Positions 22,861 through 39,978 of a DNA stretch of 43,786 nucleotides are shown here, one piece after another (within the stretch, counting starts at the first letter, position 1; the number at the start of each line of letters is the position of its first letter). The position numbers were made by a program, and so were the translations under genes. Under the pieces are notes generated by a model. That model made no database searches, was not told the origin of the DNA, and was given only the letters and a program-made list of their open reading frames with translations. This DNA comes from Spirochaetales bacterium (GTDB lineage Bacteria > Spirochaetota > Spirochaetia > Treponematales > UBA12059): positions 4,797 through 48,582 of the forward strand of contig DAIPLR010000002.1 in assembly GCA_036769135.1 (NCBI GenBank), in the 5' to 3' direction.

Positions 22861-23709
22861 TTACACCTTGACGACTTCGTTGATCAGCTTGCCCAGGGCG
22901 GCGTCCTGGCTCTGGATAGTCTTCTGGTTGGCCTCGTAGGCGCGGTTCACCTCGATCATGCGCACCATCTCGGTCACTACGTTGACGTTGGCAGCCTCGG
23001 TAAAGCCCTGGAGCACGGTCGGGCGCCCCTCCGGCGGCATCACGCGGGCGGGGCCGGAGAGCTCGGTGTCCTTCCAGAGGCTGGAGCCCTGCTTGGCTAT
23101 GAAGCGGTCCAGCTCGAAGTCCACGATCTTCAGGGTGTCCAGGAGCACCGTGTTGTTCCACTCGTTCTGCTCGCGGCCTACGAGGAGCTCCGGGTCGTCG
23201 ATATAGTCGGCGTTGACCCAGACGCGGCCCTGCTTGTCTATCTGGAAGTTGTTGGCCTTGACGCGTATGGGGCCGTCGACGCCCAGGACCGGGAAGCCTT
23301 CCTTGGTCTCGAGGTAGCCTTCCTTGCCCAGTATGAAGGAGCCGTTGCGGGTATAGCGCTCGCCGTATGGCGTCTGTACCGAGAGCCAGCCCTTGCCGTC
23401 CAAGGCTATGTCGAAGTCGCTTTCGGTGCCCTTGAGCGCGCCCTGCTCGAGCTCGGTGAAGATTTCGTTCGACTCCACGCCGGTGCCGAGCTTGCCTATG
23501 ACCGGAGCCATGTCGCCAGAGCCTAGGGGATGCAGGTACACGCCGTCGTCGTTCATCCGGCGTAGGAGGAGCTGGGCGAAGGCCTTGCTCACCGCGACCT
23601 CGCGCTTATAGCCGTCGGTATCCACGTTGGCCAGATTATTGGCCACCGTATCGAGCCTGACTTGTTGGGCGGCCATGCCGCTCGCTCCCGTATACCATCC
23701 TCGTAACAT
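22861..23709 (-). CDS. flgF: flagellar basal-body rod protein FlgF (FlgG paralogue)
   Basis: It has the same Flg_bb_rod N- and C-terminal motifs (SGMAAQQVRLDTVANNLANVDTDGYKR ... NRAYEANQKTIQSQD). An SD GGAGGT precedes it, and it lies upstream of flgG. Confidence 0.8.
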   Translation of the reverse strand: MLRGWYTGASGMAAQQVRLDTVANNLANVDTDGYKREVAVSKAFAQLLLRRMNDDGVYLHPLGSGDMAPVIGKLGTGVESNEIFTELEQGALKGTESDFDIALDGKGWLSVQTPYGERYTRNGSFILGKEGYLETKEGFPVLGVDGPIRVKANNFQIDKQGRVWVNADYIDDPELLVGREQNEWNNTVLLDTLKIVDFELDRFIAKQGSSLWKDTELSGPARVMPPEGRPTVLQGFTEAANVNVVTEMVRMIEVNRAYEANQKTIQSQDAALGKLINEVVKV

Positions 23710-24357: not shown

Positions 24358-25974
24358 ATGAAGAAGCTTATCTTCGTGACCGGCGGCGTGTGCTCGTCCC
24401 TGGGCAAAGGCATAACGGCCTCGTCCATCGGCACCCTGCTCGAGGCCCGCGGGCTCAACGTCCGCATGATGAAGATCGACCCGTACCTGAACGTGGACGC
24501 GGGCACGATGAATCCATACCAGCACGGCGAAGTGTACGTGACCGACGACGGGGCGGAGACCGACCTGGACCTCGGGAACTACGCGCGCTTCACCGACGCC
24601 CCGATTTCCAAGGCCAATTCCATCACCACGGGGCAGGTCTATCGGGACGTCATCAACAAGGAGCGCGAAGGCCGCTTCCTCGGCCGGACCGTCCAGGTCG
24701 TTCCCCATATCACCGACGAGATCAAGTCGCGGATCCTGGCCATAGGCAAGGAGCCGGACGTCGACGTGACCATCGTCGAGATAGGCGGGACCGTCGGCGA
24801 CATGGAGAGCGTGCCTTTCCTTGAGGCCGCGCGCCAGCTCATCCACGAGCAGGGCCATGCCAATGCCGCGAGCGTGCACGTCACCTTGGTGCCCGCCGTC
24901 GCCGGCGGCGAACTTAAGACTAAGCCGACCCAGCATTCGGTCAAGGAGCTCCAGGAGGTCGGCATCCAGCCCGACGTCCTCGTGTGCCGCTCCGAGAAGC
25001 CTCTGGACGAGTCCCTGCGCCGCAAGCTGGCCGCCTTCACCAACGTGGAGTACGAGGGCGTGGTCTCCGCCCATGACGTGGCCTCCACCATCTACGAGAT
25101 CCCCCTGGTCTTCAGCGAGCAGGGCCTGGACGTCTTCCTCCTCAAGAAGATGAACGTCGAGAGCCGGCACGCCGACCTTAGGGCCTGGAAGGACGTGGTG
25201 CGCCGCGTAAGCGAGCCTAAGCGCCGCGTGCGCATCGCCGTGGTCGGCAAATACATGGAGCTTCACGACGCCTATAAGTCGGTCTGGGAGGCCCTCTGCC
25301 ACGGCGGCATAGCCAACGACGCCGGCGTCGACATCGTCCGCGTCGATTCCGGGCGGCTGGAGGAGGCCGGCGTCGAGCTTGACGCCCTCTTCGAAGGCAT
25401 AGACGGTATCCTCGTGCCCGGCGGCTTCGGCCAGCGCGGCATAGGCGGCATGGTCGCCGCCGCCCGCTACGCCCGCGAGAAGAAGCTGCCGTACTTCGGC
25501 ATCTGCCTCGGCATGCAGATCATGGCCATCGAATGGGCCCGCGACGTGCTCGGCTGGGCCGACGCCGACTCCGCCGAGTTCAACCAGGACGCCGGCCATG
25601 CGGTGGTCAGCCTCCTCGAGGACCAGGTGGACGTGAAGAACTACGGCGGCACCATGCGCCTGGGGCGCAACGACACGGCCTTCAAGGAGGGCTCCAAGCC
25701 GGCGCTCGCCTACGGCTCGACCCTGGTCTCCGAGCGCCACCGCCATCGCTACGAGTTCTCTAACGCCTATCGCGCCGAATTCGAGAAGTCGGGCATCGTC
25801 ATAGCGGGGCTTACGCCCGACGGCGAGCTGGTCGAGAGCCTGGAGTGGCCCGAGCACCCCTGGGGCGTCGGCGTCCAATTCCACCCCGAGTTCAAGTCCC
25901 GGCCGGTGGCGGCGCACCCCCTGTTCGCCGCCTTCATCAAGGCCGGCCTGGAGCATGGTAAAAAACGGGCTTAG
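24358..25974 (+). CDS. pyrG: CTP synthase
   Basis: The N-terminus MKKLIFVTGGVCSSLGKGITASSIG is canonical, and the glutamine amidotransferase C-terminal domain has GICLGMQ. The 616-aa antisense ORF 24178..26028 was rejected. Confidence 0.95.
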   Translation: MKKLIFVTGGVCSSLGKGITASSIGTLLEARGLNVRMMKIDPYLNVDAGTMNPYQHGEVYVTDDGAETDLDLGNYARFTDAPISKANSITTGQVYRDVINKEREGRFLGRTVQVVPHITDEIKSRILAIGKEPDVDVTIVEIGGTVGDMESVPFLEAARQLIHEQGHANAASVHVTLVPAVAGGELKTKPTQHSVKELQEVGIQPDVLVCRSEKPLDESLRRKLAAFTNVEYEGVVSAHDVASTIYEIPLVFSEQGLDVFLLKKMNVESRHADLRAWKDVVRRVSEPKRRVRIAVVGKYMELHDAYKSVWEALCHGGIANDAGVDIVRVDSGRLEEAGVELDALFEGIDGILVPGGFGQRGIGGMVAAARYAREKKLPYFGICLGMQIMAIEWARDVLGWADADSAEFNQDAGHAVVSLLEDQVDVKNYGGTMRLGRNDTAFKEGSKPALAYGSTLVSERHRHRYEFSNAYRAEFEKSGIVIAGLTPDGELVESLEWPEHPWGVGVQFHPEFKSRPVAAHPLFAAFIKAGLEHGKKRA

Positions 25975-26638
25975 ACCCCGAGGCCTCGCGGCCGGACCGG
26001 GCCGAGGCCTCGCGGCCGCCTTCGCCATGGCGCTCCTCGGGTCGTGCAGCCTGGATTACGGCCAGGCCATGCTCAAGGAGCTGGAGGCGAGCCTGCCCGA
26101 CCTCGTCCTCTACGACTTCACCCATACCGTCGTTGAGGGCGGGAGCCCGCGCTTCAGGCTTCGGGCGGAGCTCGGCGAGAGCTATAGGCGCGACCAGCGC
26201 ATGGAGCTTTTCGGCGTCGAATTTACCGAATTCGACGCCGAAGGCGAGCCGCTCGCCGAAGGCCGAGTCGACCGCGCCACCTTCTTTACCGATACCGAGA
26301 GCGTCGTCCTGGACGGCGAGCTGCGCTTCGTCAGGAAGAGCGACGGCCTGGCTTTCGAATCGAGCTACCTGCGCTGGAACGCGGGCCAGCGCTACTTATC
26401 GAGCCGCGGCGACGCGCTCACGACGATCGAGGACGGCTCGGGCGCCCGCGTCTCCGGCGGCGGCTTCTCAGCCGACGCGGCCCGGCGCAGCTTCTCATTC
26501 GCCGGCGGCGCCGAGGGGACGATCGGCCTGGCCGACGGGGCTGCTGACGGGACGGCCGGCGACGACGCTTCAGGCGGCGACGACGCTTCAGGCGGCGACG
26601 ACGCTTCAGGCGGCGAAGCGGGCGCGGGCTCGCCGTGA
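25955..26638 (+). CDS. LptC-like periplasmic lipoprotein with C-terminal (GDDASG)x3 repeat
   Basis: Position is immediately upstream of lptA-lptB. The size and beta-rich composition fit, and a signal peptide with lipobox LLGSC is present. This is a synteny-based call. Confidence 0.45.
   Translation: MVKNGLRPRGLAAGPGRGLAAAFAMALLGSCSLDYGQAMLKELEASLPDLVLYDFTHTVVEGGSPRFRLRAELGESYRRDQRMELFGVEFTEFDAEGEPLAEGRVDRATFFTDTESVVLDGELRFVRKSDGLAFESSYLRWNAGQRYLSSRGDALTTIEDGSGARVSGGGFSADAARRSFSFAGGAEGTIGLADGAADGTAGDDASGGDDASGGDDASGGEAGAGSP
26558..26611 (+). repeat. perfect 18-bp tandem repeat x3 (GGCGACGACGCTTCAGGC) inside the lptC-like gene, encoding GDDASG x3
   Basis: The repeat was read directly from the sequence. 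Confidence 0.9.
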
Positions 26639-28152: not shown

Positions 28153-29358
28153 ATGTATAAAGTTTTATTTATTGATAGAAAAACTAAGCAAATCGACGCG
28201 CTCCGCGATCTCTTAGCTCCCGAGTTCCAGCTACTGGCGAGCGCCGATTTCGACGAAGGGCTCGAGCGACTGAAGGCGCAGGGCGTCGATTGCGTCGTCG
28301 TCGACCTGGATTCCATCGACCCCGCCTGGGGCGTCAGGCCCCTGGCGAGGCTCGGCAGGCTCTCCCCGGGCAGCGCCGTCATCGTCACGCAAGCCAAGCT
28401 CGAGCCGCGGGCGGTCCTGCCGTGGCTGGAGGCGGGCGTCGCGAGCTTCTACGCCCAGCCGTACGAGGCCGATAGGCTCGCCGACGCGCTGCGCTACGGC
28501 CTAGCCGTCCGGCTCTCGGGCGGCCGTATGCGGCCCTTCCCTATCCGTTCGCCGTCGCCCCCGTGGGCTCGGCCCGGGAACGAGGCCGGCGGCGACGAGC
28601 TCCCGCCCATGATCGGCCTGAGCGAGCCGATGCGCAAGGTCCGGGTGACGCTCGCCTGCTACGCGGCCGCCGACGAATGCGTCCTGATCCGCGGCGAGAC
28701 GGGAACCGGCAAGGACCTGGCCGCCTACGAGATCCATCGCGCGTCGAACCGTCGCGAAGGCCCGTTCCGATCCATTAATTGCGCCGCTATCGCCGAAACC
28801 CTCGCCGACAGCGAGCTCTTCGGCACGACGAAGGGCGCCTTTACCGGCGCCGTCGACAAGCCGGGGCTCTTCGAGGCGGCGCGGGGCGGGACCCTCTTCC
28901 TCGACGAGGTCGGCGAGCTGTCCCTCCCTATCCAAGCTAAGCTCCTGCGGGCCATCGAGAATAAGGAGGGCGTCCGCGTAGGGAGCATGAAGACGATACG
29001 CTACGACGTCCGCCTGATCTGCGCCACCAACGCTCCCCTTACGCCGCCGGGCTTCAGGCAGGACCTGTTCCATAGGATCAGCGTGCTTCCCATAGCCATG
29101 CCCCCGCTTCGCGCACGCGACGGCGACGTGGAGCTCTTGGCGCGCGAATTCCTACGCCAGGAGGCGCCGGGAGCCCGCCTATCCGCGGAGGCCGTCGAGG
29201 AGCTCAAGGCGCGCGCCTGGTACGGCAACGTCCGCGAGCTCAAGAACTGCATCAAGCGCGCGGCGATCTTGAGCTTCGGCGCGACGGCCATAGGGCGGGA
29301 CGAGCTCCGGGACTGCCTGGACGCGGCCGACGGAGCGGGCCAGAAATACCTGGGCTAA
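28153..29358 (+). CDS. sigma-54-dependent transcriptional activator (NtrC family) with atypical N-terminal receiver-like domain
   Basis: The AAA+ sigma54-interaction domain has GETGTGKDL, the GAFTGA motif and ESELFGT. The N-terminal ~120 aa are receiver-like (VVVDLD), and the C-terminal HTH is weak. A low-GC leader and start precede it. Confidence 0.8.
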   Translation: MYKVLFIDRKTKQIDALRDLLAPEFQLLASADFDEGLERLKAQGVDCVVVDLDSIDPAWGVRPLARLGRLSPGSAVIVTQAKLEPRAVLPWLEAGVASFYAQPYEADRLADALRYGLAVRLSGGRMRPFPIRSPSPPWARPGNEAGGDELPPMIGLSEPMRKVRVTLACYAAADECVLIRGETGTGKDLAAYEIHRASNRREGPFRSINCAAIAETLADSELFGTTKGAFTGAVDKPGLFEAARGGTLFLDEVGELSLPIQAKLLRAIENKEGVRVGSMKTIRYDVRLICATNAPLTPPGFRQDLFHRISVLPIAMPPLRARDGDVELLAREFLRQEAPGARLSAEAVEELKARAWYGNVRELKNCIKRAAILSFGATAIGRDELRDCLDAADGAGQKYLG

Positions 29359-29947: not shown

Positions 29948-30700
29948 TCAGCCTCGATCGCCCCCGCGGTTCGAGGCGTCGCGGCTCAAGGCGGTGAATT
30001 TCGTGAAGATGCCCTCGAAGCGCGTAAGCTCCGCCGGGCTCAAGGCCGCGCGGGCGGCGACGCCGGCTATGAAGCGTTCCTGGTCCTCGCGGCCGGCGAT
30101 CTTGTAGAAGCCGGCATCCTGGAGGGCGTCGGCTATCCGCCGAGCCGCCCCTTCGGCCTCATCGCGCCCGGCCGGCCGAGCCGCCGCCGCGGAGCTTCCG
30201 ACCCCGCCGTTCGCGGGGGCGCCGGCCAGCCAAGTCCGCCTGAGCTCCCAAAAGCACAGTTGGACCGCGTGGGAGAGGTTGAGCGAGGGGAAGAGCTCCG
30301 AGCTCGGGATATGCGCCGCCAGGTCGCAGAGGGCCAGTTCGTCGTCGGAGAGTCCGTCCCGCTCGTTGCCGAATACGAGGCCGATCCGTCCCGGGCGGGC
30401 GGCGGCCTCCTCGGCGAAGCGCCGTATATCGACGCTTTCCTTGCGACGCCTGCCTAGGCGTCGGCTTAGGCCCGCGGCGAGGCTTAGATCCGCGAGCGCG
30501 TCCTTAAGCGAGTCGAAACGCCCCGCCCGCTCGTAGAGCGAGAAGGCCCCGAGGGCGTAGGTCTTGACCGTATCCGGGTCGAAGCCGGGGCAGGCGGCTA
30601 GGCGTAGCTCGGTCACGCCCATGCTTAAGAGGGCGCGGCACGAAGCCCCGACGTTCACGGCCCCCTCGGCGCGGCAGAGGACGGCGACATAGTTATCCAT
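29948..30700 (-). CDS. SpoU/TrmH-family RNA 2'-O-methyltransferase
   Basis: Motifs GLVFGNERDGLS and CDLAAHIPSSELFPSLNLSHAV (SPOUT knot) are present. I chose the start at MDNYVAV and rejected the Arg-rich N-terminal extension of the track ORF. Confidence 0.7.
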   Translation of the reverse strand: MDNYVAVLCRAEGAVNVGASCRALLSMGVTELRLAACPGFDPDTVKTYALGAFSLYERAGRFDSLKDALADLSLAAGLSRRLGRRRKESVDIRRFAEEAAARPGRIGLVFGNERDGLSDDELALCDLAAHIPSSELFPSLNLSHAVQLCFWELRRTWLAGAPANGGVGSSAAAARPAGRDEAEGAARRIADALQDAGFYKIAGREDQERFIAGVAARAALSPAELTRFEGIFTKFTALSRDASNRGGDRG

Positions 30701-30719
30701 GGGCTGTATACTAACCCGC

Positions 30720-31478
30720 ATGAGTTCGCGAAATACAGCCGTCGGCCTAGCGGGCCTGCGTTGCCTGGTCGTAGGCGCTAGCGGCGGCATCGGCCTCGCT
30801 TTAAGCCTGGAGCTGGCGCGCGGCGGCGCGTCGCTGACCCTGCACGGCCGCGACGCGACCCGTTTAGGGGCGGCGGCGGAGGCCGTGCGCCGCGCCTCGC
30901 CCGACGGGGCCGTCACGGGTGTACTCGTCGGCCCGGTCGAGCCGCGCGGCGAGCTCCTCCCCGGGCCCTTGCTCGCCGCTGCGCGCGAATGCGACGCGCT
31001 GGCGCTTTGCTACGGCCCGTTTATCCATGCGTCGATAGCCGAGACGGCCCCCGCCGACTGGGCGCTCATGGCGGCCGCCAATCTGGCCTTCCCCGCCGCC
31101 TTGGCGGCGGAGGCGGCCAAGGCGATGGCCGACCGGGGTTTCGGGCGCATACTCCTCTTCGGCGGCACGAGGACTGACGCCATCCGGGCGTATCGGCGGA
31201 ACGCCGCGTACGCGGCCGCTAAGACAGGCTTGGCCGTGGCCGCTAAGTCGCTAGCGGCCGAGTTCGCCCCGCGCGGCGTCTCATGCGCGCTCGTTTGCCC
31301 AGGCTACGTCGATACCGAGTACCTTGACGCCGCGTTCAGGGCCAGTATGGAGCGCGGCTCGCCGCGCGGACGCTTAATCGCGGCTTCCCGCGTGGCCGAG
31401 TTCGCGGCTCGGCTTCTTGCGGGCGGCATGGATCTAGCGAACGGAGCGGTGATCAATCTTGATGAAGGTTTGGTATAG
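30720..31478 (+). CDS. short-chain dehydrogenase/reductase (SDR)
   Basis: It has the Rossmann motif VVGASGGIG and YAAAK (YxxxK). It is divergent from the TrmH-like gene. Confidence 0.7.
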   Translation: MSSRNTAVGLAGLRCLVVGASGGIGLALSLELARGGASLTLHGRDATRLGAAAEAVRRASPDGAVTGVLVGPVEPRGELLPGPLLAAARECDALALCYGPFIHASIAETAPADWALMAAANLAFPAALAAEAAKAMADRGFGRILLFGGTRTDAIRAYRRNAAYAAAKTGLAVAAKSLAAEFAPRGVSCALVCPGYVDTEYLDAAFRASMERGSPRGRLIAASRVAEFAARLLAGGMDLANGAVINLDEGLV

Positions 31479-31551
31479 AGTGAATAGCTCATACAATCGT
31501 TGAATGGGCTGGATTTTTCGACTTTCATAGCCGAAAATATTGTCGATAGTT

Positions 31552-31680
31552 TAGCCAATTTCAAAAGTCGGTTACTTTTGAAATTGGCTTTGCGATTGCT
31601 TGCGTTTGCGTTGCAAACGCTGCGCCCAATCGCAGTTTTCTAAGGTAGCTCTTTCAAAACTCGCTGAGTTTTGAAAGAGC
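31552..31680. repeat. 129-bp structured intergenic repeat, copy 1 (three perfect hairpins; AT-rich relative to genome)
   Basis: It is 100% identical to 37322..37450. Hairpin 1 is 31554-31588 (15-bp stem GCCAATTTCAAAAGT/ACTTTTGAAATTGGC). Hairpin 2 is 31592-31633 (GCGATTG...[GCGTTTGC gtt GCAAACGC]...CAATCGC). Hairpin 3 is 31648-31680 (GCTCTTTCAAAACTC gct GAGTTTTGAAAGAGC). Confidence 0.95.
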
Positions 31681-31726
31681 TTCAGTTGAATTAAAGCTCG
31701 ATTGAGGCATTATTAAGCCGGCTTGT

Positions 31727-31755
31727 TTGACAGGCCATTGACGGCGAATTATTAT
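31727..31755 (+). promoter_or_regulatory. sigma70-type promoter (-35 TTGACA, 17-bp spacer, -10 TATTAT) upstream of the STAS-YbjN-PspA cluster
   Basis: The -35 is an exact consensus hexamer with ideal spacing. It lies 57 bp upstream of ATG 31812, and an SD GGAAGAGGAG follows. Confidence 0.5.
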
Positions 31756-31811
31756 GTTCATACAATCGGGCGATATAAACGATCTATGTTGTACCTTGGA
31801 AGAGGAGTATC

Positions 31812-32363
31812 ATGACCAACAACGATATCGTTCCTGGTTTCGATGATGAGAAGGACGATAGCCTTAAGATCAGGCTCCAGAAAATCGACACCGTCGAGAA
31901 CTGCTTAGCCCTCTTCCTCACCGGCTATATCGATACCTACAACTCCAACTTTTTCCAAAAACGGGTCGGCAAGGCCATAGACGCTGGTTTTTCTAAGTTA
32001 GTATTTAACTGCGGCGGCTTGAATTACGTGTCTTCGACCGGCATAGGTTCGTTTACCGCCTTTTTAAAGGCCGTGAAGCCCCGTAACGGCGATATCGTCC
32101 TTCTAGAGATTCAGCCCAAGGTTTACGAGGTCTTCCAGCTCCTGGGCTTCTCCCAGTTCTTCAATATCAAAGATAATCTCGATGAGGCGGTCTCCTACTT
32201 CCAGCAAGGCTCTCAGCAGAGCACGCAAACCATCTTCCCCAAAATATTCTCTTGCCCCATATGCAATAAGAAGCTTCGGGCCGCCCGTCCGGGCCGCTTC
32301 CGCTGTTCTGAATGCAAGACCATCTTGGCCATCGACAACTCCGGGCAGGTCTTCCTCGGTTAA
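31812..32363 (+). CDS. STAS-domain protein (anti-sigma-factor antagonist-like) fused to C-terminal C4 zinc ribbon; low-GC gene
   Basis: The STAS core LVFNCGGLNYVSSTGIGSFTAF...IVLLEIQPKVYEVFQLLGF is present. The C-terminus has CPICNKK...CSECK. Its GC is ~50% against ~70% surroundings, with A/T-ending codons. Confidence 0.7.
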   Translation: MTNNDIVPGFDDEKDDSLKIRLQKIDTVENCLALFLTGYIDTYNSNFFQKRVGKAIDAGFSKLVFNCGGLNYVSSTGIGSFTAFLKAVKPRNGDIVLLEIQPKVYEVFQLLGFSQFFNIKDNLDEAVSYFQQGSQQSTQTIFPKIFSCPICNKKLRAARPGRFRCSECKTILAIDNSGQVFLG

Positions 32364-32416
32364 TCGGCCTCGCTCGCCGGAAGCTCGTCGTATGGCAGAA
32401 TAGAAGGAGATAGCCG

Positions 32417-32800
32417 ATGCAGGGACTCAGCAAGGTCGAGGCCTACCTCATGGAACTGGATATATCGTACCAAGAGGTCGCCCCCGGGACCTTCTTCATC
32501 GAGGACGAGACCCGCGGGCTCCCCGGCGTCGCCGTGACCATAGACGAGCCGGTCGTCTTCATCCGCACCAAGGTGATGGCCCTGCCTAAGGCCAAATACT
32601 GCGAGCTCTTCGAGAGCCTCCTGAGGCTCAACGCGACCGATATACTCCACGGCGCCTACGGCATCGACGGGGACGACGTCGTGCTCGTCGATACCTTGGA
32701 GTACGACAATATGGATAAGAACGAGTTCGAGGCGGCCCTCGACTCGATTGGCATGGCCCTCTCCAAGCACTACGCGGTGCTCGGGGCATACCGCGACTAA
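32417..32800 (+). CDS. YbjN-domain protein (putative sensory transduction regulator / chaperone-like)
   Basis: It is 127 aa and acidic, with a YbjN-like pattern. The family is typically found next to pspA. Confidence 0.6.
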   Translation: MQGLSKVEAYLMELDISYQEVAPGTFFIEDETRGLPGVAVTIDEPVVFIRTKVMALPKAKYCELFESLLRLNATDILHGAYGIDGDDVVLVDTLEYDNMDKNEFEAALDSIGMALSKHYAVLGAYRD

Positions 32801-32817
32801 GGATTAGGAGGCTCGCC

Positions 32818-33516
32818 GTGGGCATATTCGACCGCTTTAAGACCGTCATATCATCGAACATCAACGATATGATCTCCAAGGCTGAGAATCCCGAGAAGAT
32901 GCTCAACCAGTTGATCATCGACATGAACCAGCAGATGGTCGAGTCCAAGAAGGCCGTGGCCATGGCCATAGCCGACGAGAAGAAGATCGAGCGCGAGCTC
33001 CTCGAGCAGAAGCGCCAAGCCGAGGAATGGGAACGCAAGGCCGTCATCGCCGTCAAGGCGGGCCGCGACGACCTGGCGAAGGAAGCTTTGCTGCGCAAGC
33101 AGGAGGCGGAGAACTACTACCTGCAGCTCAAGCCCCAGTGGGAGAGCCAGAAGGCGGCCGTCGAGAAGCTCAAGGAGACGCTCAGGCAGCTCCAGAACAA
33201 GATCGACGAGGCGACCCGGAAGAAGAATATCCTCATCGCCCGCGCTAAGCGCGCCGAGGCCCAGCAGAAGATTCAGAAAACCCTGACCAGCATGTCGGGC
33301 AATACCAGCGCCTTCGAGACCTTCGACCGCATGGCCAAGAAGGTGGACGAGATGGAGGCCCGCGCCGAGGCGCACGCCGAGCTCGCCGACCTGTCCCAAT
33401 CTTCCTCGCTCGAGAAGGAGTTCTCTAAGCTGGAGAGCTCCGGCGCCGGCGCGGATCTCCTCCTGGAGGAGCTCAAGCAGAAGATGCTCGGCGAGGGCGG
33501 GACCAGCCAAGGCTAA
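32818..33516 (+). CDS. pspA: phage shock protein A / IM30 / Vipp1 family
   Basis: The N-terminus MGIFDRFKTVISSNINDMISKAENPEKMLNQLIIDMNQ is canonical. It has long coiled-coil heptads and is 232 aa. Confidence 0.9.
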   Translation: MGIFDRFKTVISSNINDMISKAENPEKMLNQLIIDMNQQMVESKKAVAMAIADEKKIERELLEQKRQAEEWERKAVIAVKAGRDDLAKEALLRKQEAENYYLQLKPQWESQKAAVEKLKETLRQLQNKIDEATRKKNILIARAKRAEAQQKIQKTLTSMSGNTSAFETFDRMAKKVDEMEARAEAHAELADLSQSSSLEKEFSKLESSGAGADLLLEELKQKMLGEGGTSQG

Positions 33517-33519
33517 TCC

Positions 33520-34191
33520 GTGCGCGCGCTGTTCGTCGGCGACGAAGGACGGTACCGCGCATTGTTCGAGGGGAGCGACCCGCTACCGGGTTGCTCCCTA
33601 TTTTTTCGCGCCGCGCTCGGCGCTCCCGACCGGGAGGCCGACCGGGAGACCGACTGCCTGATCATGCCGGCGGAGGCCTTCCTGTCGGCCGGCTTCGATC
33701 TCGAGCGGCCGCCGGTCATAGGCTACGGAGAGGGGAGCCTCCTGCCGCTCTGCCTCGGCGCGGGCGCCTTCGACTATCTTCGTGAGCCCTGGGGCCTGCC
33801 GGAGCTGGAGGCGCGGGTCCGTAGGCTCCGCGGTCGAGGCTTCGCGCTCGCCGGCGCCCGTTGCGAGCTGCGGCCCCATGAGCTGCTCGGCCCCCTGAGG
33901 GGCGTGCCTCTCTCGCCGCAGGCTTATGAGGCGCTGAGGCTGCTCGTCGATCATGCTCCCCGCGCGCTCTCGGCCGAAACCCTGCATCGAGTTCTCGGCA
34001 CGAAAGCGCCGAGCGCCTTGCCTATGGCCGTGTCGCGCCTTCGAAAAGCCATCGGGATGGCCGCCGGGAGCGAGGCGGCGAGGCGACTACGCGGAACGCG
34101 GGCCGATGCGATGCGCCTACGCGCGGATACCGAAGGCCGCTGCGCGAGCGAACGGGCCTATGCGTCATACTACCTGGCCTTGGATGCCTAA
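33520..34191 (+). CDS. atypical OmpR/PhoB-like winged-helix protein with degenerate/truncated receiver-like N-terminus (GTG start)
   Basis: The C-terminal region LSPQAYEALRLLVDHAPRALSAETLHRVLG...AVSRLRKAIG resembles trans_reg_C (LTPxEFxLLxxL...RxxLxxxVWG...RLRKKL). The N-terminus lacks the canonical acid pocket. It starts 4 nt after pspA. Confidence 0.45.
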   Translation: MRALFVGDEGRYRALFEGSDPLPGCSLFFRAALGAPDREADRETDCLIMPAEAFLSAGFDLERPPVIGYGEGSLLPLCLGAGAFDYLREPWGLPELEARVRRLRGRGFALAGARCELRPHELLGPLRGVPLSPQAYEALRLLVDHAPRALSAETLHRVLGTKAPSALPMAVSRLRKAIGMAAGSEAARRLRGTRADAMRLRADTEGRCASERAYASYYLALDA

Positions 34192-34208
34192 AGGCTGCGT
34201 TCCTATGC

Positions 34209-34440
34209 CTGTGGATAAGTGGTTGATAGCTTTGAAGTGTTAAGTAAATCTCGTCTATAGACATGTAGAATCTCGATGGGCAAACGATGATATTTGAGTT
34301 TTTTGTCGCAGTTGCATGTAATTGTATGTATAGAAAGAGAATAAAATCAGGTAACTATGTAAATAAATACCGCGGCCCGTGTTCGCGCCCAACATGATTA
34401 TTTTTATTATTCTTCCGGTATGTGCGTTACTTGTGGATAA
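34209..34440. promoter_or_regulatory. AT-rich 320-bp intergenic region containing two perfect DnaA-box 9-mers (TGTGGATAA = reverse complement of TTATCCACA) at 34209-34217 and 34432-34440, each within an 11-mer TGTGGATAAGT
   Basis: The 9-mers were read directly and are in the same orientation 223 bp apart. The surrounding sequence is <40% GC in a 70% GC genome. Confidence 0.5.
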
Positions 34441-34480
34441 GTTGTGAGGCGCCTTCTGTATAACTGCCTTTGGGCTTTGC

Positions 34481-34509
34481 TTGTCAACGAGTTAGAGCCA
34501 TGCTAGAGT
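34481..34509 (+). promoter_or_regulatory. sigma70-like promoter (-35 TTGTCA, 17 bp, -10 TAGAGT) placing the TSS within ~2 nt of ATG 34518 (leaderless candidate)
   Basis: The hexamers and spacing were read directly. No SD lies before ATG 34518. Confidence 0.35.
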
Positions 34510-34517
34510 TTGACGTC

Positions 34518-35207
34518 ATGAAACGCGTCGCGGCCCTCATTGGGAAAGCCATCGGCCTCTATCTAGCCGCGTCGCTCGCGCTCGCCGTTTACGTCGGCCT
34601 GCGCGCCTACCTCGACGCCTGGCCTATGCCCTTGGCATTAGCGGCCCTCAAGGCCGGCTATACCCTGCCGCTCCTAGCCTGGACCCCGACCGCGCTCGTG
34701 TTGTACTACTCCATGAACAGGGTCATGCGGAATCGACCGCTCGGCTACCTTCTTCTCCTGGTCTGCGGGGCTTTTTTGATAGCTTGGCCGCTGGCGTTAG
34801 CGCGCTTCGGGCTCCTCAGCCTGGATACCGAGGCGACGGAGGCCTTCAGGGGAGCGGGGCGCTCGCTATCGGCCTGGTACATAAGCCTGACGGAACTCGC
34901 GCCGGCCCAGGCCGCGCTCGCCGTCGTCGGCGTCGCGTGGCTCTTGGCCTCGGCCTGGGGGCTTACGCGCCTGGTCGGCTCAAGGCCCCTGGTGGGGGCC
35001 TTCATAGCGCCGGGCGCGGTATTCGGCTTGTGGCGTCTCGCCGAGGCCTACGCCGGCGGCGCCCTCTCGCCGGCGTTCTCCTTCGTCGGCTTGAACATAA
35101 CGCCTGCCATGCAGGCCGCGGCGCTCTGCGGCCTGACGGGCTTGGGGTTCATCGGGTTGGATTTCCTGGTCGCCGCGAAGCCGGGCGCCGAGGCCGGCCG
35201 TGGCTAA
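34518..35207 (+). CDS. polytopic membrane protein (hypothetical)
   Basis: It has 6-7 predicted TM helices. I chose the start at MKRVAAL (ATG 34518) because the track's upstream start is TTG and overlaps the promoter. ATG 34500 is an alternative. Confidence 0.5.
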   Translation: MKRVAALIGKAIGLYLAASLALAVYVGLRAYLDAWPMPLALAALKAGYTLPLLAWTPTALVLYYSMNRVMRNRPLGYLLLLVCGAFLIAWPLALARFGLLSLDTEATEAFRGAGRSLSAWYISLTELAPAQAALAVVGVAWLLASAWGLTRLVGSRPLVGAFIAPGAVFGLWRLAEAYAGGALSPAFSFVGLNITPAMQAAALCGLTGLGFIGLDFLVAAKPGAEAGRG

Positions 35208-36855
35208 GCGCGGCTCGCTCTTCATCGCCTACGCCTTAGGGATCATGGCCGCGGCCTACGCGGCGGCTTTCTTCTGGCGGCTCTTGAACGTCGGCCGCGC
35301 CGACCTGCTCTTTATCTTCGCCCTGCGTTGGGAGCTCATGGGCGCCGCGCTCACCTTCGCGGCCTGGGCCCCGGCCCTGCTCCTCGTGGCGGCCGCGCTC
35401 GCGGCCGAATCCGCCGAGGGGCCGCCCGACTTCCACGCCACGGCATACGCGGTGCTCCTGCCCGGCTTCTTCTTCGCCGCGGCGCTCTCGATCCTCTTCC
35501 TCGTGGTACAGCCCTACGCCGAGGGACGCGTCGCCTTCTATGAGCGGGCGAGCGCGGAGTTCGGCGCGCGCCTGGGCGCCGCGCGCGAGCGCTACGCCCG
35601 CGGCGACTACCGGGCGGCCGAGCTCTTCGCCCGCGACGCCCGGGCCATAGACCGGGACCATCCCGAGCTTGAGAAAGTCTACGGGCTCATCCAAGAAGCC
35701 CTCCTACGGCAGGCCGACGAGGAGGCCGAGCGCGCGGCCCGCGCCCGCCCCGAGGATCCGCCCGCGCCGAACTGGCTCGTGGCCAACCGTTTCTACCTCG
35801 AGGCGCAGGCGGCGATGCGCGACGGGCGCTATTTCGACGCCCACTACCTGGCGCGGCGCTCGCTGGCGGTTTACGGAGGTCGGCGTGAGGTCCTTAGGCT
35901 CATAGACGAGAGCTGGGCGGCAATGCGCAGCCTCGAGCCGTCGGCCGAGCAAAGGGCCGACGCCGATTACTATAAGCGCAAGCTCGAGGCCTACGAGTAT
36001 TTCGCGCGCGACGACGCGCTCGAGGCCTTCAGGCGCTTCTCCGCCCTGGCGGCCGAGCGCCCCGACGATAAGGACGCGGCTGATTTCCTCGCCTTGAGCG
36101 CCCAGAGCCTCGAGCGCCGCGGTTTCTTCCTGGAGGAGAGCGAGCTGGCCTTCGGCTCGGGCGGCGGCCGCCCTCTGTCGCTTTCGATCGCGGGCGCCGA
36201 GCTCCGCGCCGAGGCGGCGGCGGAGTCGGCCTCCGGGGTCTACCTGCGCGGCGTCGCCTTCGACGACGGCGGGCGGAGCTACCGGGCCGAGCATGCGCGG
36301 CTGAACGGCGACGTACTGCAGCTGCTCGCGGTGAGCCGGCGCGACCCGTCGCTGACATGGCGGGCGCGGGCGGCCGACGGCGGCGCGCCGCCGAGTTACC
36401 TCGAGCTAGGGGGGGCCGAGGCCGCGGCGCGCCGTTACCTGGAGCTCTCCGCGCCGCCGCACGAGCTGACCCTCCTCACGCTGATAAATGGCATGGACGA
36501 CGCGCGCGAGCTCGGCGTGGACGGCGCGGGGCTGTACGCCGACCTGGCTCGCCGCCTCTCCTATCCCTTCGTCTGCGTCATCTTAATACTCATGGGCGCG
36601 GGTCTGGGGCTGCGCTTCAGGCCCCGCTCGCGTCCGAGCGCGGTCTCGTCGATATTCTGGGCCCCGGTCATGGCCGCCTTGGTCCAGCCCGTCTTCGGCC
36701 TCGCCGAGGAGCTGTCTAAGACGCCCTTGGACCTGCTGTCGCGAGCGCTGCCCGGCGGTACCTTCATAGCCGCTTGGCTAGCCTTCCTCGGCGCGGCCGT
36801 CGCCTGCTCGCTCTTCGTCGCGGAGCGCATCGCGCGCCATGCGCCGCGCTCTTGA
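35200..36855 (+). CDS. large membrane protein: N-terminal TM bundle, ~370-aa Ala/Arg/Glu-rich helical (TPR-like) soluble domain, C-terminal TM bundle
   Basis: The hydropathy pattern was read from the translation. It overlaps its neighbours by 8 and 17 nt, suggesting coupling. I recognise no family. Confidence 0.5.
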   Translation: MAKRGSLFIAYALGIMAAAYAAAFFWRLLNVGRADLLFIFALRWELMGAALTFAAWAPALLLVAAALAAESAEGPPDFHATAYAVLLPGFFFAAALSILFLVVQPYAEGRVAFYERASAEFGARLGAARERYARGDYRAAELFARDARAIDRDHPELEKVYGLIQEALLRQADEEAERAARARPEDPPAPNWLVANRFYLEAQAAMRDGRYFDAHYLARRSLAVYGGRREVLRLIDESWAAMRSLEPSAEQRADADYYKRKLEAYEYFARDDALEAFRRFSALAAERPDDKDAADFLALSAQSLERRGFFLEESELAFGSGGGRPLSLSIAGAELRAEAAAESASGVYLRGVAFDDGGRSYRAEHARLNGDVLQLLAVSRRDPSLTWRARAADGGAPPSYLELGGAEAAARRYLELSAPPHELTLLTLINGMDDARELGVDGAGLYADLARRLSYPFVCVILILMGAGLGLRFRPRSRPSAVSSIFWAPVMAALVQPVFGLAEELSKTPLDLLSRALPGGTFIAAWLAFLGAAVACSLFVAERIARHAPRS

Positions 36856-37312
36856 GTCGGCTATCCGCGCCCTCCGCTCGGCCGCGGCCCTCGCCTTCGA
36901 ACGATCGCGCGGCCGACGCGGGCGCATCGCGGGGACCTGCCTAGGCGCGCTGAGCGGCGGCCGCCACTTTACCTTCGGCGCGCTCGCCGGCTACGTACTC
37001 GGCGCCCTGGTCGACGCGTACTTCGAGAGGCGCGCCGCGCCGGGCGACGGATACCGCGATGAGGCGGCCGCCGGCCGCGGGGCCGAACGGCGGGGCGATG
37101 CCGAGGCCGAAACGGCGGAGCGCGCTAGGCTCTACGCCCTCTTCGGGCTCGAACCCGGCGCGCCTCCCGACGAGCTAAAACGGGCGTACCGCCGCCTCTG
37201 CCGTGACATGCATCCCGATAGAAGCGGCGGCTCCGAGGAAGGCTTCCGCGCCATCAAAGCCGCCTATGACAGGCTCGCCGACGCCCCCTCCGGGGCGAAG
37301 CCGGATAGCTAG
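36839..37312 (+). CDS. membrane-anchored J-domain co-chaperone (DjlA-like)
   Basis: It has an N-terminal TM (FTFGALAGYVLGALVDAYF) and a C-terminal J domain LYALFGLEPGAPPDELKRAYRRLCRDMHPDRSGG with the HPD motif. Confidence 0.65.
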   Translation: MRRALESAIRALRSAAALAFERSRGRRGRIAGTCLGALSGGRHFTFGALAGYVLGALVDAYFERRAAPGDGYRDEAAAGRGAERRGDAEAETAERARLYALFGLEPGAPPDELKRAYRRLCRDMHPDRSGGSEEGFRAIKAAYDRLADAPSGAKPDS

Positions 37313-37321
37313 TACGAACCG

Positions 37322-37450
37322 TAGCCAATTTCAAAAGTCGGTTACTTTTGAAATTGGCTTTGCGATTGCTTGCGTTTGCGTTGCAAACGCTGCGCCCAAT
37401 CGCAGTTTTCTAAGGTAGCTCTTTCAAAACTCGCTGAGTTTTGAAAGAGC
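37322..37450. repeat. 129-bp structured intergenic repeat, copy 2 (identical to 31552..31680); overlaps the last 8 codons of sppA
   Basis: It is an exact 129/129 match in direct orientation 5,770 bp from copy 1. It lies between the convergent djlA-like and sppA genes. Confidence 0.95.
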
Positions 37451-39871
37451 CTCACTGAGCAGGGACGAGGGCTCCAGGAGGAGCGGACCCGTGCCCATCG
37501 CCTGTATCGTATCCGCCGCCGAGCCGAGCTCGGTTAAACTCCGGATAAGCCCCGAGCGCGCCAGGCCGCTAGCCGACATGAGCCACGGTCCCCAGTCCAT
37601 GAGCGAGCCAGGCGACTCGTAGCGTAGCTTTATCGGGCCGCCGAGCCTCAGGCGCATCGCCCCTACGGCGGCGTCTAAGCCGCCTATCTCGTCGACCAAG
37701 CCCAGCTCCTTGGCCTCGGCCCCGAGCCAGACCTGACCCTTGCCTAGTTCGTCGGCCCGCTCCAGGCTCAGACCGCGGCCCTGGCTCACCGTCGCGACGA
37801 AGCGGCCGTAGATAGACGCGATGGCCTCGTTCAAGGCCGCGGCATCGCCCGGCCTGTGGGGCAAGAGGGGATTGGCGAAGGCGGCGTTGTCGCCGGGACC
37901 TACGCTCTCCGCCTTGACGCCGAGCTTATCGACCAAGCCGCTCGCGTCCGGCATGAGTCCGGTGACGCCGATCGAGCCGGTGATCGTGCCCTCCTCGGCC
38001 CAGATGCGCTCGGCGAAGGCCGAGATATAGTAGCCGCCCGAGGCGGCGTAGCCGCCCATGGAGACGAACAGGGGCTTGCCGGCCTCGCGGAAGCGTCGTA
38101 CCTCCCGCGCTATGTAGTCGCTGACCGCGGCGCTTCCGCCGCCCGAATCGACGCGCAGGATGACGCCGGCCACGGCCGCGTCTTCGCGCAGCTCGGCCAG
38201 CCTGGCGGCGGCCGATTCGCCTATGCTGGCGCCGGCGACGCCGGGGCCTTCGATGATGGAGCCCGAGAGCCCCAGCACGACCACGGCCTTGGCCAGCGGG
38301 TGCGCGCCCCACGCCCCGTCCCGGGCCGCGCGATAGGCCTCGATGCCGATGCGCTTCGTCCAGCCGCGTCCTTCGAGCCCTTCCAAGAACTCGTCGCGGT
38401 AGGAGAGCTCCTCCGCCAGGCCGGCGGCGACGGCCTTGGCCGAGACCAGGTAAGGGCCGGCGGCGATGACGGCCGAGGCCTCCGCGCCTAGCCTTCCGGT
38501 GCGCCCTGCGGCTAGCCTGGCGGCCGCCTGGCGCGACAGCCCGCCTAGGTAGCGCTCGAGGCCCTCCCGCTCGGCGGCGGTCATGCCGTATTCGGTGAAG
38601 GCGTTATAGGCGGTTTTCTCGTCATGGGAGCGCAGGGTATGGAAGCGCAGCCCGAGCTTATCGAAGAGCCCCCTAAAATACAGCCGCGCGCCGCCTAACT
38701 CGACGAGCGCCACGGAACCGTTGGGGTCGATCGCCAGATAGTCGGCTTGGGAGGCTAGGTAGAGATAGGCGCCGCGCCCGGCGTTTCGTACGTAGGCGTA
38801 GACGGGCTTTCCGGTAGCGCGGAAGGCGTCCAGGGCGCGGGCGAAAGCCTGACCGGCCGCATCGGAGGGCGGCTCCGGGGGTTCGAGGAGGACCAGGGCG
38901 CCGATGCGCGGGTCTTCCGCGGCCGCCAGCACCGATTCGACGTAGAGGTCGAAGCTCGCGCGGCCGCTCCGCCTGGCCGCCATACCGGCCGGTAGGACGA
39001 GCCCGGCGTCCTCGGCGCCGTCGATGACCAGCGCCGCGGCTTGGGGCGCTACGAAGGCGGGCCGCGCCTTGAAGCGGGGATCGGCGCGCAGGGCCGCGCC
39101 GAAGCCCAGGCGCTCGCCGGCCGGGGAGGCCGCGGCGGCCGCCAAGTCGGGGACGGCCAGGGTCGTCTCCGTCGGCCCGAGCGCCATCGAGAGGCTCAGG
39201 CTTACGGCGCCCGAGCCGAAGTCGTAGGACGCCCCTATCCTGGCCGCGTCGTCCAGGCGGAGGCGGGCGCCCGCCTCCCGCCAGCTAAAGCCGGCGTCGC
39301 CGTAGCGGGCCGTGGCCGAGAGGGTCAAGACGGAGCTAAGCTCGGGCCGCGACTCGATGAAGGCCAGCGGCCGGACGGCCAGGCCGAAGTCCCAGGACGG
39401 CGAGGCCGATAGGGCATCCGTCAGGCCTAGGCCGAGCGATAGGGCTGCGTTCGGGCGGATCAGGTAGCTGAAGTCCCAGGCGCCCCCGCTTCGGTAGCGC
39501 AGGCCGCTCGAGAACGCCTTGCCCATGGCGAAGGAAACGACGAGCTCCTGGCTCGGCGAGCCCTGCCCGTCGTCGGCGTAGCGGTAGAGGAGGCCCGGGA
39601 GGCCGAAGGCCAAGGCGTAGGGCGCGCCTTCGAGCCGGCGGGCGGCCAGCTCGTCGAGAGAAGCCTGGGTATAGAAGCCGGCGGCGAATTCGAGTGTCCG
39701 ACCCCAGGCCGCAGGGTTGTAGAACTGGTCCCAGAGGCTATCGGGATCGGGCTCGGCGCTGAAGGCCGGCGCTTCGAGGTAAGCCCGGCTGGCCTGGGCT
39801 CCGACGCCTGAAACGGCGAACAGGACGAGGAGTATGCCCGCGATCGCGGCGGCGAATCGAGTTTTGCTCAT
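37424..39871 (-). CDS. sppA: signal peptide peptidase SppA (tandem S49 domains, 67K type) with ~300-aa N-terminal signal-peptide-bearing beta-rich extension
   Basis: Two S49/ClpP-fold regions are present (GKPVYAYVRNAGRGAYLYLASQADYL...; GKPLFVSMGGYAASGGYYISAFAERIWAEEGTITGSIGV). I chose the start at MSKTRFAAAIAGILL (RBS GAAAGG). The C-terminal ALSKLSEF* is encoded by hairpin 3 of the repeat. Confidence 0.8.
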   Translation of the reverse strand: MSKTRFAAAIAGILLVLFAVSGVGAQASRAYLEAPAFSAEPDPDSLWDQFYNPAAWGRTLEFAAGFYTQASLDELAARRLEGAPYALAFGLPGLLYRYADDGQGSPSQELVVSFAMGKAFSSGLRYRSGGAWDFSYLIRPNAALSLGLGLTDALSASPSWDFGLAVRPLAFIESRPELSSVLTLSATARYGDAGFSWREAGARLRLDDAARIGASYDFGSGAVSLSLSMALGPTETTLAVPDLAAAAASPAGERLGFGAALRADPRFKARPAFVAPQAAALVIDGAEDAGLVLPAGMAARRSGRASFDLYVESVLAAAEDPRIGALVLLEPPEPPSDAAGQAFARALDAFRATGKPVYAYVRNAGRGAYLYLASQADYLAIDPNGSVALVELGGARLYFRGLFDKLGLRFHTLRSHDEKTAYNAFTEYGMTAAEREGLERYLGGLSRQAAARLAAGRTGRLGAEASAVIAAGPYLVSAKAVAAGLAEELSYRDEFLEGLEGRGWTKRIGIEAYRAARDGAWGAHPLAKAVVVLGLSGSIIEGPGVAGASIGESAAARLAELREDAAVAGVILRVDSGGGSAAVSDYIAREVRRFREAGKPLFVSMGGYAASGGYYISAFAERIWAEEGTITGSIGVTGLMPDASGLVDKLGVKAESVGPGDNAAFANPLLPHRPGDAAALNEAIASIYGRFVATVSQGRGLSLERADELGKGQVWLGAEAKELGLVDEIGGLDAAVGAMRLRLGGPIKLRYESPGSLMDWGPWLMSASGLARSGLIRSLTELGSAADTIQAMGTGPLLLEPSSLLSEALSKLSEF

Positions 39872-39978
39872 ACTGACCTTTCTTTCGATGGATCGTATCG
39901 GGCCGTCGGCCCGCGCTGATACAACGGTATCGCCGCCGACGGGAAAAACCAAATTCGATCGCCGCGATTCAGGCGGGA

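Follow-up and report, generated by a model that had tools for sequence, protein, structure and literature searches.

A probable miniature transposable element with palindromic ends, inserted twice around a conserved PspA gene cassette in a Spirochaetales bacterium

A stretch of 43,786 nucleotides from Spirochaetales bacterium (assembly GCA_036769135.1, contig DAIPLR010000002.1, positions 4,797 to 48,582 of the forward strand), hereafter the window, carries two copies of a hairpin-rich repeat, one on either side of a 5.6-kb cassette of genes which includes those of a STAS-domain protein and of PspA. The two repeats are very probably independent and recent insertions of one non-autonomous transposable element, a MITE (miniature inverted-repeat transposable element), and the STAS-PspA cassette is ordinary conserved chromosome lying between two insertion sites. 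The features defining bacterial MITEs, as taken from a review (PMC3184786), are found, save the partner insertion sequence (IS) and, in the source organism, a copy number beyond the two copies in the window. Terminal inverted repeats (TIRs), 4-bp target-site duplications (TSDs), filled and empty alleles and many copies in relatives mark the repeat as a MITE, and the original prediction, made from the window alone, was right in substance when it listed the REP, BOX and MITE kind among the possibilities.

Filled and empty sites at the locus

Ten other assemblies of the locus were obtained by a look-up of the STAS protein. Two of them, L001 and L009, represent what is essentially the window strain (99.9-100% identity), with the repeat at the corresponding position; as these independent assemblies reproduce the insertions, an assembly artefact is ruled out. 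The first site is filled in the window, in L001, L009 and L010, and appears filled in L007, the contig of which begins two bases short of the end of this copy 1. Copy 1 is missing in L006, which is 100% identical over 986 bp upstream and 99.6% identical downstream, and holds a single AGTT. It is missing as well in L002-L005 and L008, which are 93-94% identical. The six empty alleles read ...TCGAT AGTT GAATTAAAGC, the filled ones ...TCGAT AGTT [132 bp] AGTT GAATTAAAGC. L002 is empty at both sites, and copy 2 is present in L001. At the second site the empty allele of L002 reads ...GTACCGAGCAGG, the filled one ...GAACCG[132 bp]ACTGAGCAGG. Each copy has therefore its own 4-bp duplication (AGTT/AGTT and ACCG/ACTG, respectively), and none is common to the cassette as a whole.

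The full cassette, in the same gene order, resides in the strains with empty sites. Since it is found there along with clean empty sites, the repeats are separate insertions into a pre-existing gene neighbourhood, and since all the more distant strains are empty, the empty state is ancestral. The near-identity of the two copies (131 of 132 positions), and the polymorphism among strains diverging by less than 0.5%, indicate recent activity. Of the Logan contigs, L007 ends 30 nt into copy 2 and L010 also breaks inside the repeat, as expected where an assembler meets a multi-copy sequence.

Structure of the repeat

Positions 31552-31680 and 37322-37450 are identical at 129/129 nucleotides and lie in direct orientation, spaced by 5,770 bp. 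The perfect pair had been recognized from the sequence, as had its low G+C content (43.4%, against 67.4% for the window), and both observations are borne out. In the repeat search of the window the match reaches 133 nt with one mismatch (family D1); the second-best family is 108 nt long at 71% identity, no other pair comes near the 129-nt repeat, and low-stringency BLAST of the repeat against the window detected neither a third copy nor a fragment. According to the empty-site alleles, the mobile unit measures 132 bp, plus a 4-bp target duplication at each side. The 132-bp unit is noncoding, its sole coding use being the captured tail of sppA described below. When the first 20 nt of copy 2 are set against the reverse complement of its last 20, 14 positions agree. 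Three hairpins can be formed by either strand, with minimum free energies of -67.2 and -65.9 kcal/mol (z = -7.9 and -8.8 with respect to dinucleotide shuffles; 0/200 shuffles were equally stable). The three hairpins had been predicted correctly; the terminal stems, which had been given as 15 bp, measure 16 bp in hairpin 1 and 15-16 bp in hairpin 3.

The element family in spirochaetes

A 25-nt pattern common to the two terminal hairpins, TTTCAAAASTCGNNNASTTTTGAAA, was scanned across one genome per species, and was found in at least 113 sequence blocks from at least 36 genomes. Among the matches listed, 35 of 36 genomes are labelled Spirochaetota, and most of them belong to Treponematales; the labels include Treponema, Treponemataceae, Rectinema, Rectinemataceae, Gracilinema, Spirochaetales and Brucepastera parasyntrophica RmG11. 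The G+C content of the sampled blocks ranges from 33% to 68%. One Treponemataceae metagenome-assembled genome, EPI_MAG_00133 (JAVBPH01), contributes at least 47 blocks, and many of its contigs end inside the element. Full-length relatives of the window element align with it end to end, at 70-95% identity. In metagenomes, a scan with the window-type centre retrieved two contigs only, both carrying family members (TSDs GATA and TGTT). BLAST of the element against plasmid and phage collections gave no match, and the hairpin pattern had 0 hits among IMG/VR viral contigs; the latter result gives no sign of a phage vector.

Single members of the family deserve mention. B. parasyntrophica RmG11 is a cultured member of Treponemataceae, order Treponematales, with a complete genome (NZ_CP084606); it hosts a three-hairpin copy (L123, about 6660-6800) flanked by the duplication AACT and placed directly after the stop codon of a sigma-factor-like gene. 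The only non-spirochaete label among the matches listed is that of L014 (WQVX01000233.1), a 2.6-kb termite-gut contig binned with Defluviitaleaceae (Firmicutes) and carrying a three-hairpin element; a mis-binned spirochaete contig is likelier than transfer. In L049 (positions 233-706 and 947-1088), a contig of EPI_MAG_00133, the element is found in the spacer 85 nt downstream of an open reading frame (ORF) holding a pspA homologue, which is 69% identical at the nucleotide level to the pspA gene of the window. The vicinity is probably a coincidence.

Members of the family start with GAGCC and end with GGCTC, and the subfamily of the window starts with TAGCC. Pooling both ends of 39 elements gave the terminal inverted-repeat consensus GAGSC(W)N-TTTCAAAA; at either end, positions 1-3, 5 and 8-15 hardly vary, and the termini are mutually inverted. 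Perfect 4-bp flanking repeats were found at 38 of 85 pairs of terminal motifs, and at 0/85 when a control offset was used. Among 47 testable elements of 100-165 bp, the duplication is perfect in 32 and carries one mismatch in 9. The duplicated tetramers vary, 33 different ones being counted in 39 duplications, and are rich in A+T (76%), as are the 14-nt flanks (75%); the loci themselves have 49% A+T. The low G+C content of the element in a 67% G+C host is accounted for by its nearly invariant A+T-rich core, and by the sharing of the family among hosts of very different base composition.

Elements range in size from 37 to 159 bp. Solo hairpins of 37-39 bp are made of the left repeat, a loop and the right repeat, and have duplications of their own (as an example, L071 4960-4998, AGTT). 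Three-hairpin forms measure 107-159 bp, and share hairpin A, with its conserved loop TCGGTTA, a short TTGC-type junction, the linker (C/T)TAAGGT(A/T)GC and hairpin B. The central hairpin occupies the same place in all of them, and is unrelated between subfamilies. The shared linker suggests that the long form arose once, and that its centre later diverged or was exchanged. The solo hairpins suggest, in turn, that each end of the three-hairpin form is a minimal mobile unit, and the long form may correspond to two minimal units which captured a middle piece. In further variants the loop of hairpin B encloses a small hairpin rich in G+C. This mini-hairpin, CGGACC(NNNN)GGTCCG, is a fourth module, and the elements which have it are about 159 bp long, or 135 bp in L079 (L096 3508-3666; L054 2624-2782; L022 1-159; L115 2-160; L079 334-468). 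Some elements are found directly beside another copy or a solo hairpin, in tandem or near-tandem (L028 594-745 and the bases which follow; L122 23-140 and 168-200), which suggests insertion into or beside existing copies.

Conservation of the palindromes

The terminal hairpins are maintained as such throughout the family. In 22 diverse copies 97.6% of the cells of the terminal helices are paired: 98.4% in helix A, where five pairs show compensatory changes, and 96.7% in helix B, where compensatory changes are seen at six pairs. Changes at both sides were found at 11 of 32 pairs in at least one sequence, for a total of 51 cells, against 11.1 +/- 2.7 in shuffles, none of which (0/500) reached 51. 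Sliding the partner by one to three columns lowers pairing to 32-61%. In the subfamily of the window the inner central stem covaries as well, and the alignment shows the outer central stem changing from GCGATTG/CAATCGC to GCATTTG/CAAATGC. Changes in the terminal stems are almost all from one Watson-Crick pair to another, and G-U pairs are very few. The scarcity of G-U pairs, and the equal folding of both strands, argue for a constraint acting on DNA rather than RNA; these data would be better explained if the constraint were on DNA, double-stranded or in cruciform shape (symmetric sites bound by proteins, for instance), than if it acted on a single RNA strand. The family is well suited to asking why a MITE should keep both of its ends as perfect palindromes.

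Mode of insertion and the partner transposase

In the MITE model, a transposase supplied in trans would bind both termini, a 4-bp staggered cut would be made in an AT-rich target and the element joined to it, and gap repair would create the 4-bp duplication. The chemistry involved, either cut-and-paste or copy-paste, would plausibly be of the DDE type. The location of both window copies just past gene ends is explained by the target preference, AT-rich targets being found mostly in intergenic spacers in a 67% G+C genome.

Several observations weigh against the MITE reading. Neither the window nor about 0.7 Mb of fetched loci, which had been chosen by the hairpin motif, yielded an autonomous partner. 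No ORF is enclosed between pairs of hairpins with matching duplications in the fetched loci, and all-against-all BLAST of the 1,221 ORFs of these loci revealed no recurrent transposase-like family and, with regard to RAYT or TnpA(Y1) genes, no recurrent ORF family beside the copies. A few family members are flanked by 3-, 5- or 8-bp repeats, or by none, and the duplication at the second site of the window has one mismatch. For the source organism two copies were counted, the count covering the 43,786-nt window. Finally, a transposase binding inverted repeats has no obvious need of hairpin ends with a conserved loop, a feature which the standard model leaves unexplained.

The search for a partner was extended to larger intervals: in the fetched loci no pair of motifs more than 200 bp apart has a matching duplication, and the genes found between hairpins 0.5-7 kb apart are ordinary ones (RecQ-like, argininosuccinate lyase and others). 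Terminal repeats devoid of a hairpin partner are rare, and the one inspected is not beside a transposase. Some groups of the IS5 family (IS427/IS1031/ISL2-like) have terminal repeats starting with GAG..., a ...GAAA-type core and 2-4-bp AT-rich duplications. We take this likeness for a possible lead to the source of the transposase, not for an assignment; no IS5-type transposase gene was found beside matching ends in any fetched locus. The chance is small that the hairpins are the functional substrate of a structure-guided transposase, which would recognize a folded or palindromic end with its conserved TCGGTTA loop and produce 4-bp duplications, and of which the fetched loci showed no sign, or else that the family came to serve as a portable regulatory cassette throughout Treponematales, by virtue of the sigma54-like motif and the outward TTGAAA hexamers described below. 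Three points go beyond the routine, namely the doubly palindromic ends with their conserved loop, the exchangeable central hairpin and the missing transposase, and they leave a small chance of something mechanistically unusual.

Alternative explanations

The element could at the same time be transcribed, and work as a structured RNA module, be it a terminator, a portable promoter or a means of stabilising 3' untranslated regions. Either strand forms very stable hairpins, both copies in the window are just 3' of plus-strand genes, a sigma54-like TGGC-N7-TTGCT motif is present in the window subfamily, -35-like TTGAAA hexamers face outwards from both ends, and Correia elements are reported to provide functional promoters (PMC3184786). 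Such a role is nonetheless unlikely. No terminator made of a stem plus a T-tract was found in or at either window copy, and the stems of the element are A+T-rich. At gathering thresholds Rfam 15 has 0 matches anywhere in the window, and when the element was searched at E values up to 10 the best score was 19.1 bits (E = 0.21) against a cut-off of 39.8. In the relatives, spacer classes were assigned by a simple long-ORF model on the fetched loci, and copies fall in 13 divergent, 10 convergent and 10 co-directional spacers, with no preference for the 3' side of genes; ten copies extend over a model ORF for more than 30 nt, most of them in loci rich in G+C, in which ORFs of this kind are not reliable. 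The suggestion that the repeat might be a terminator or a small RNA is therefore not sustained. Compensatory changes which avoid G-U, and the like folding of both strands, fit a constraint on DNA. As to the sigma54-like motif, it counts as one independent event, with 0.34 matches expected per window, other subfamilies lack it, and it is no more than a lead.

The promoter-like sequences may be described in their own right. The sigma54-like -24/-12 core, TGGCTTTGCGATTGCT, is found on the plus strand at 31585-31600 and 37355-37370, where hairpin A meets the central hairpin. The window has no other match to TGGC-N7-TTGCW, and these two correspond to one sequence present twice. In copy 1 the core points toward the STAS-YbjN-PspA operon, and a gene for a sigma54-type activator resides at 28153-29358. 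The motif is kept in some subfamilies as TGGCTTTGCATTTGCT, and is missing in others. The invariant core TTTCAAAA/TTTTGAAA places an outward TTGAAA 7 nt inside each terminus (31559-31564 and 31671-31676, and the equivalents in copy 2). Insertion beside a -10-like sequence could create a hybrid promoter, and the promoter scan picked up TTGAAA-17-AATATT on the minus strand at 31564..31536, a match spanning the border between element and flank.

It is very unlikely that the element is a palindromic sequence of the REP/REPIN or IS200/IS605 type, moved as single-stranded DNA by a hairpin-recognising HUH (Y1) transposase. Both ends are hairpins kept by compensatory change, the loop of hairpin A is conserved, and no transposase of the inverted-repeat type was found in the window or the fetched loci, all of which would agree with such a mechanism. 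Yet, single-strand transposition by HUH enzymes is not known to leave a target duplication, and takes place next to a fixed tetra- or pentanucleotide. Here 4-bp target duplications occur family-wide, once in empty and twice in filled alleles, the targets are AT-rich tetramers as varied as reported above, and the two termini are inverted repeats of each other.

Even less probable is a composite transposon, in which the two copies and the DNA in between moved, or can move, as one 5.9-kb unit through the outermost ends. A precedent is the IMU-integron of Enterobacter cloacae, in which two MITE copies carry cargo mobilisable in trans (PMC3184786), and both window copies are intact and near-identical. 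However, L006 has the cargo region and an empty first site, so that the cargo pre-dates the insertions, and duplications flank each copy and not the composite. The direct orientation of the copies may be added to these points, although it is no bar in itself, each end being palindromic.

Least probable of all, and refuted by the empty-site alleles, is the possibility raised in the original prediction that the repeats are borders, in this case att-like, of a horizontally acquired or excisable 5.6-kb stress-gene island: two identical direct repeats do bracket functionally related genes (STAS, YbjN/CesT, PspA, winged-helix, membrane and DnaJ-domain proteins), and the bracketed DNA has low-G+C patches, but the comparison with relatives, which the prediction itself had called for, shows the intact cassette in the same gene order without one repeat (L006, L002-L005 and L008, all empty at site 1) or without both (L002, empty also at site 2), the target sites being clean and present once, a separate 4-bp duplication accompanies each repeat, the outer flanks do not match (AGTT against ACTG), no integrase or recombinase is among the families listed for the window, and the element resides at dozens of unrelated sites in other genomes.

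Relation to known elements

With MITEs at large the element shares small size, lack of coding capacity, TIRs, duplications, a mostly intergenic location, a stable fold, filled and empty sites between close strains and the presumed need for a transposase supplied in trans. It differs in that each terminus is a perfect palindrome, also mobile as a 37-39-bp solo unit, and in that the centre is a third hairpin, exchanged between subfamilies. A census published in 2024 in NAR reported an average of 145 conserved MITEs per genome in a Spirochaetes cluster made mainly of Leptospira, Sediminispirochaeta and Treponema (PMC11602168), and elements of this sort are therefore to be expected in the group. 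In the papers searched we found no description or name for the family, the clusters of the census not having been compared at the sequence level.

In Correia elements (CREE/NEMIS) of Neisseria the target duplication is TA and the terminal repeats are 26 bp long; no transposase is firmly known for them, a further likeness. The element resembles them in size (about 104-157 bp in Correia elements; PMC3184786), inverted-repeat termini, the existence of long and short forms, insertion near or into gene ends and possible effects on promoters. It is set apart, by description, by 4-bp varied AT-rich duplications, GAGSC..TTTCAAAA termini and a host in another phylum. Among the pneumococcal repeats, BOX is not known to have target duplications, and RUP duplicates TA and has an IS630-type partner. 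BOX, RUP and SPRITE are, like the element, small, modular intergenic repeats with predicted stem-loops, and the arrangement of conserved outer modules around a variable middle recalls boxA-boxB-boxC (PMC3184786). SPRITE is terminator-like, the element described here is without a T-tract. As in IMU-type composites, two near-identical MITE copies bracket several genes; unlike in those, the cargo was in place before either insertion and the copies have separate duplications, so that the arrangement is a coincidence of two insertions.

The results give exact borders to a MITE family of Treponema-like spirochaetes, and define it further by its terminal repeats, its preferred targets and the forms it takes, solo or three-hairpin. 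They also remove a false lead, the psp-like stress cassette being conserved chromosome and not a mobile island. As the element is still moving between strains which differ by less than 0.5%, it may be exploited as a strain marker. In addition, it causes contigs to break in metagenome assemblies of spirochaetes and brings about small changes in genes, in the present case a new C-terminus of SppA.

Genes surrounding the two copies

The coordinates of the elements and of the neighbouring genes are collected in Table 1. ORFs and Pfam hits agree with the gene content that had been assigned to the bracketed interval, and the absence of integrase and transposase is likewise confirmed: no transposase, integrase or recombinase was found in the cassette, or among the Pfam families listed for the window. 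The remaining window is made of housekeeping genes, such as those for CTP synthase, flagellar rod proteins and ABC transporters.

Table 1. Features of the two insertions and of the genes around them
Feature	Position	Strand	Basis
Left target-site duplication of copy 1 (AGTT)	31548-31551		single AGTT in empty alleles, on both sides in filled ones
Copy 1 of the probable MITE, 132 bp (TAGCC...GAGCTTC), between the SDR and STAS genes	31552-31683	+	131/132 identical to copy 2; absent from six other assemblies of the locus
Terminal hairpin A, 16-bp stem AGCCAATTTCAAAAGT / ACTTTTGAAATTGGCT, loop CGGTT	31553-31589		folds; its outer arm forms the left TIR
Central hairpin, outer stem GCGATTG/CAATCGC, inner stem GCGTTTGC/GCAAACGC, loop GTT	31592-31633		folds; variable module of the family
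Conserved linker CTAAGGTAGC, central hairpin to hairpin B	31640-31649	+	kept as (C/T)TAAGGT(A/T)GC in copies with different centres
Terminal hairpin B, (A)GCTCTTTCAAAACTC gct GAGTTTTGAAAGAGC(T)	31647-31681		folds; its outer arm forms the right TIR
Right target-site duplication of copy 1 (AGTT)	31684-31687		
Left target-site duplication of copy 2 (ACCG)	37318-37321		empty allele of L002 against filled allele
Copy 2 of the probable MITE, 132 bp (TAGCC...GAGCCTC), in the last sppA codons	37322-37453	+	absent in L002, present in L001
New sppA 3' end provided by the element, EALSKLSEF plus stop, 30 nt	37424-37453	-	filled against empty allele
Right target-site duplication of copy 2 (ACTG, differing from ACCG at one base)	37454-37457		
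SDR	30699-31478	+	ORF and Pfam
STAS	31812-32363	+	ORF and Pfam
YbjN/CesT-like	32417-32800	+	ORF and Pfam
PspA/IM30	32818-33516	+	ORF and Pfam
Weak Trans_reg_C winged helix	33520-34191	+	ORF and Pfam
Membrane protein	34470-35207	+	ORF and Pfam
Weak LptF/LptG-like	35200-36855	+	ORF and Pfam
DnaJ-domain protein	36839-37312	+	ORF and Pfam
SppA (Peptidase_S49)	37424-39952	-	ORF and Pfam

Both copies lie directly 3' of plus-strand genes, at positions in keeping with the earlier description. Copy 1 starts 73 nt past the SDR stop codon and ends 128 nt before the STAS start, and has lengthened the spacer between the two genes by 136 bp upstream of a strong sigma70-like promoter match (31727-31766). The match reads TTGACA-17-TATTAT at 31727-31755, a second, overlapping one ends at 31766, and both precede STAS. 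Lying between copy 1 and STAS, these putative promoter sites were left intact by the insertion. Copy 2 starts 9 nt past the stop codon of the DnaJ-like gene (37310-37312), which is outside the element and unchanged.

On the minus strand, copy 2 struck sppA three codons before its stop. The protein ends with ...LLLEPSSLLSEALSKLSEF (stop) in the filled allele and with ...LLLEPLSLLGTY (stop) in the empty allele of L002: the tail ...GTY has become ...SEALSKLSEF, the last three residues being replaced by ten, with a net extension of seven residues. That copy 2 supplies the 3' end of sppA had been correctly foreseen; the contribution is of nine codons plus the stop with the 132-bp borders, and not of eight codons, a figure which follows from the 129-bp borders.

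The STAS/zinc-ribbon gene (31812-32363) has a G+C content of 50% and a third-position G+C content (GC3) of 70%, that of its neighbours being 79-90%. The STAS protein is identical in strains with flanking DNA 93-94% identical; the loci were retrieved by exact match to this protein, and the sample is biased accordingly. The spacer between the winged-helix and the membrane-protein genes (34192-34469) is 278 bp long and 40% G+C, and has no Rfam match. A similar gap, of about 308-309 bp between called genes, is present at this place in other strains; the spacer may contain promoter or regulatory sequences serving the membrane-protein genes downstream.

Two additional repeats of the window concern other regions. 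The direct repeat of family D2 (108 nt, 71%) falls within adjacent paralogous flagellar rod genes on the minus strand (22057-22848 and 22864-23709), which have FlgF/FlgG-type Pfam hits and are unrelated to the 129-bp repeat. The ORF at 25955-26635 includes, at 26546-26616, a short tandem array with an 18-bp period, made of at least three GACGCTTCAGGCGGCGAC-like units.

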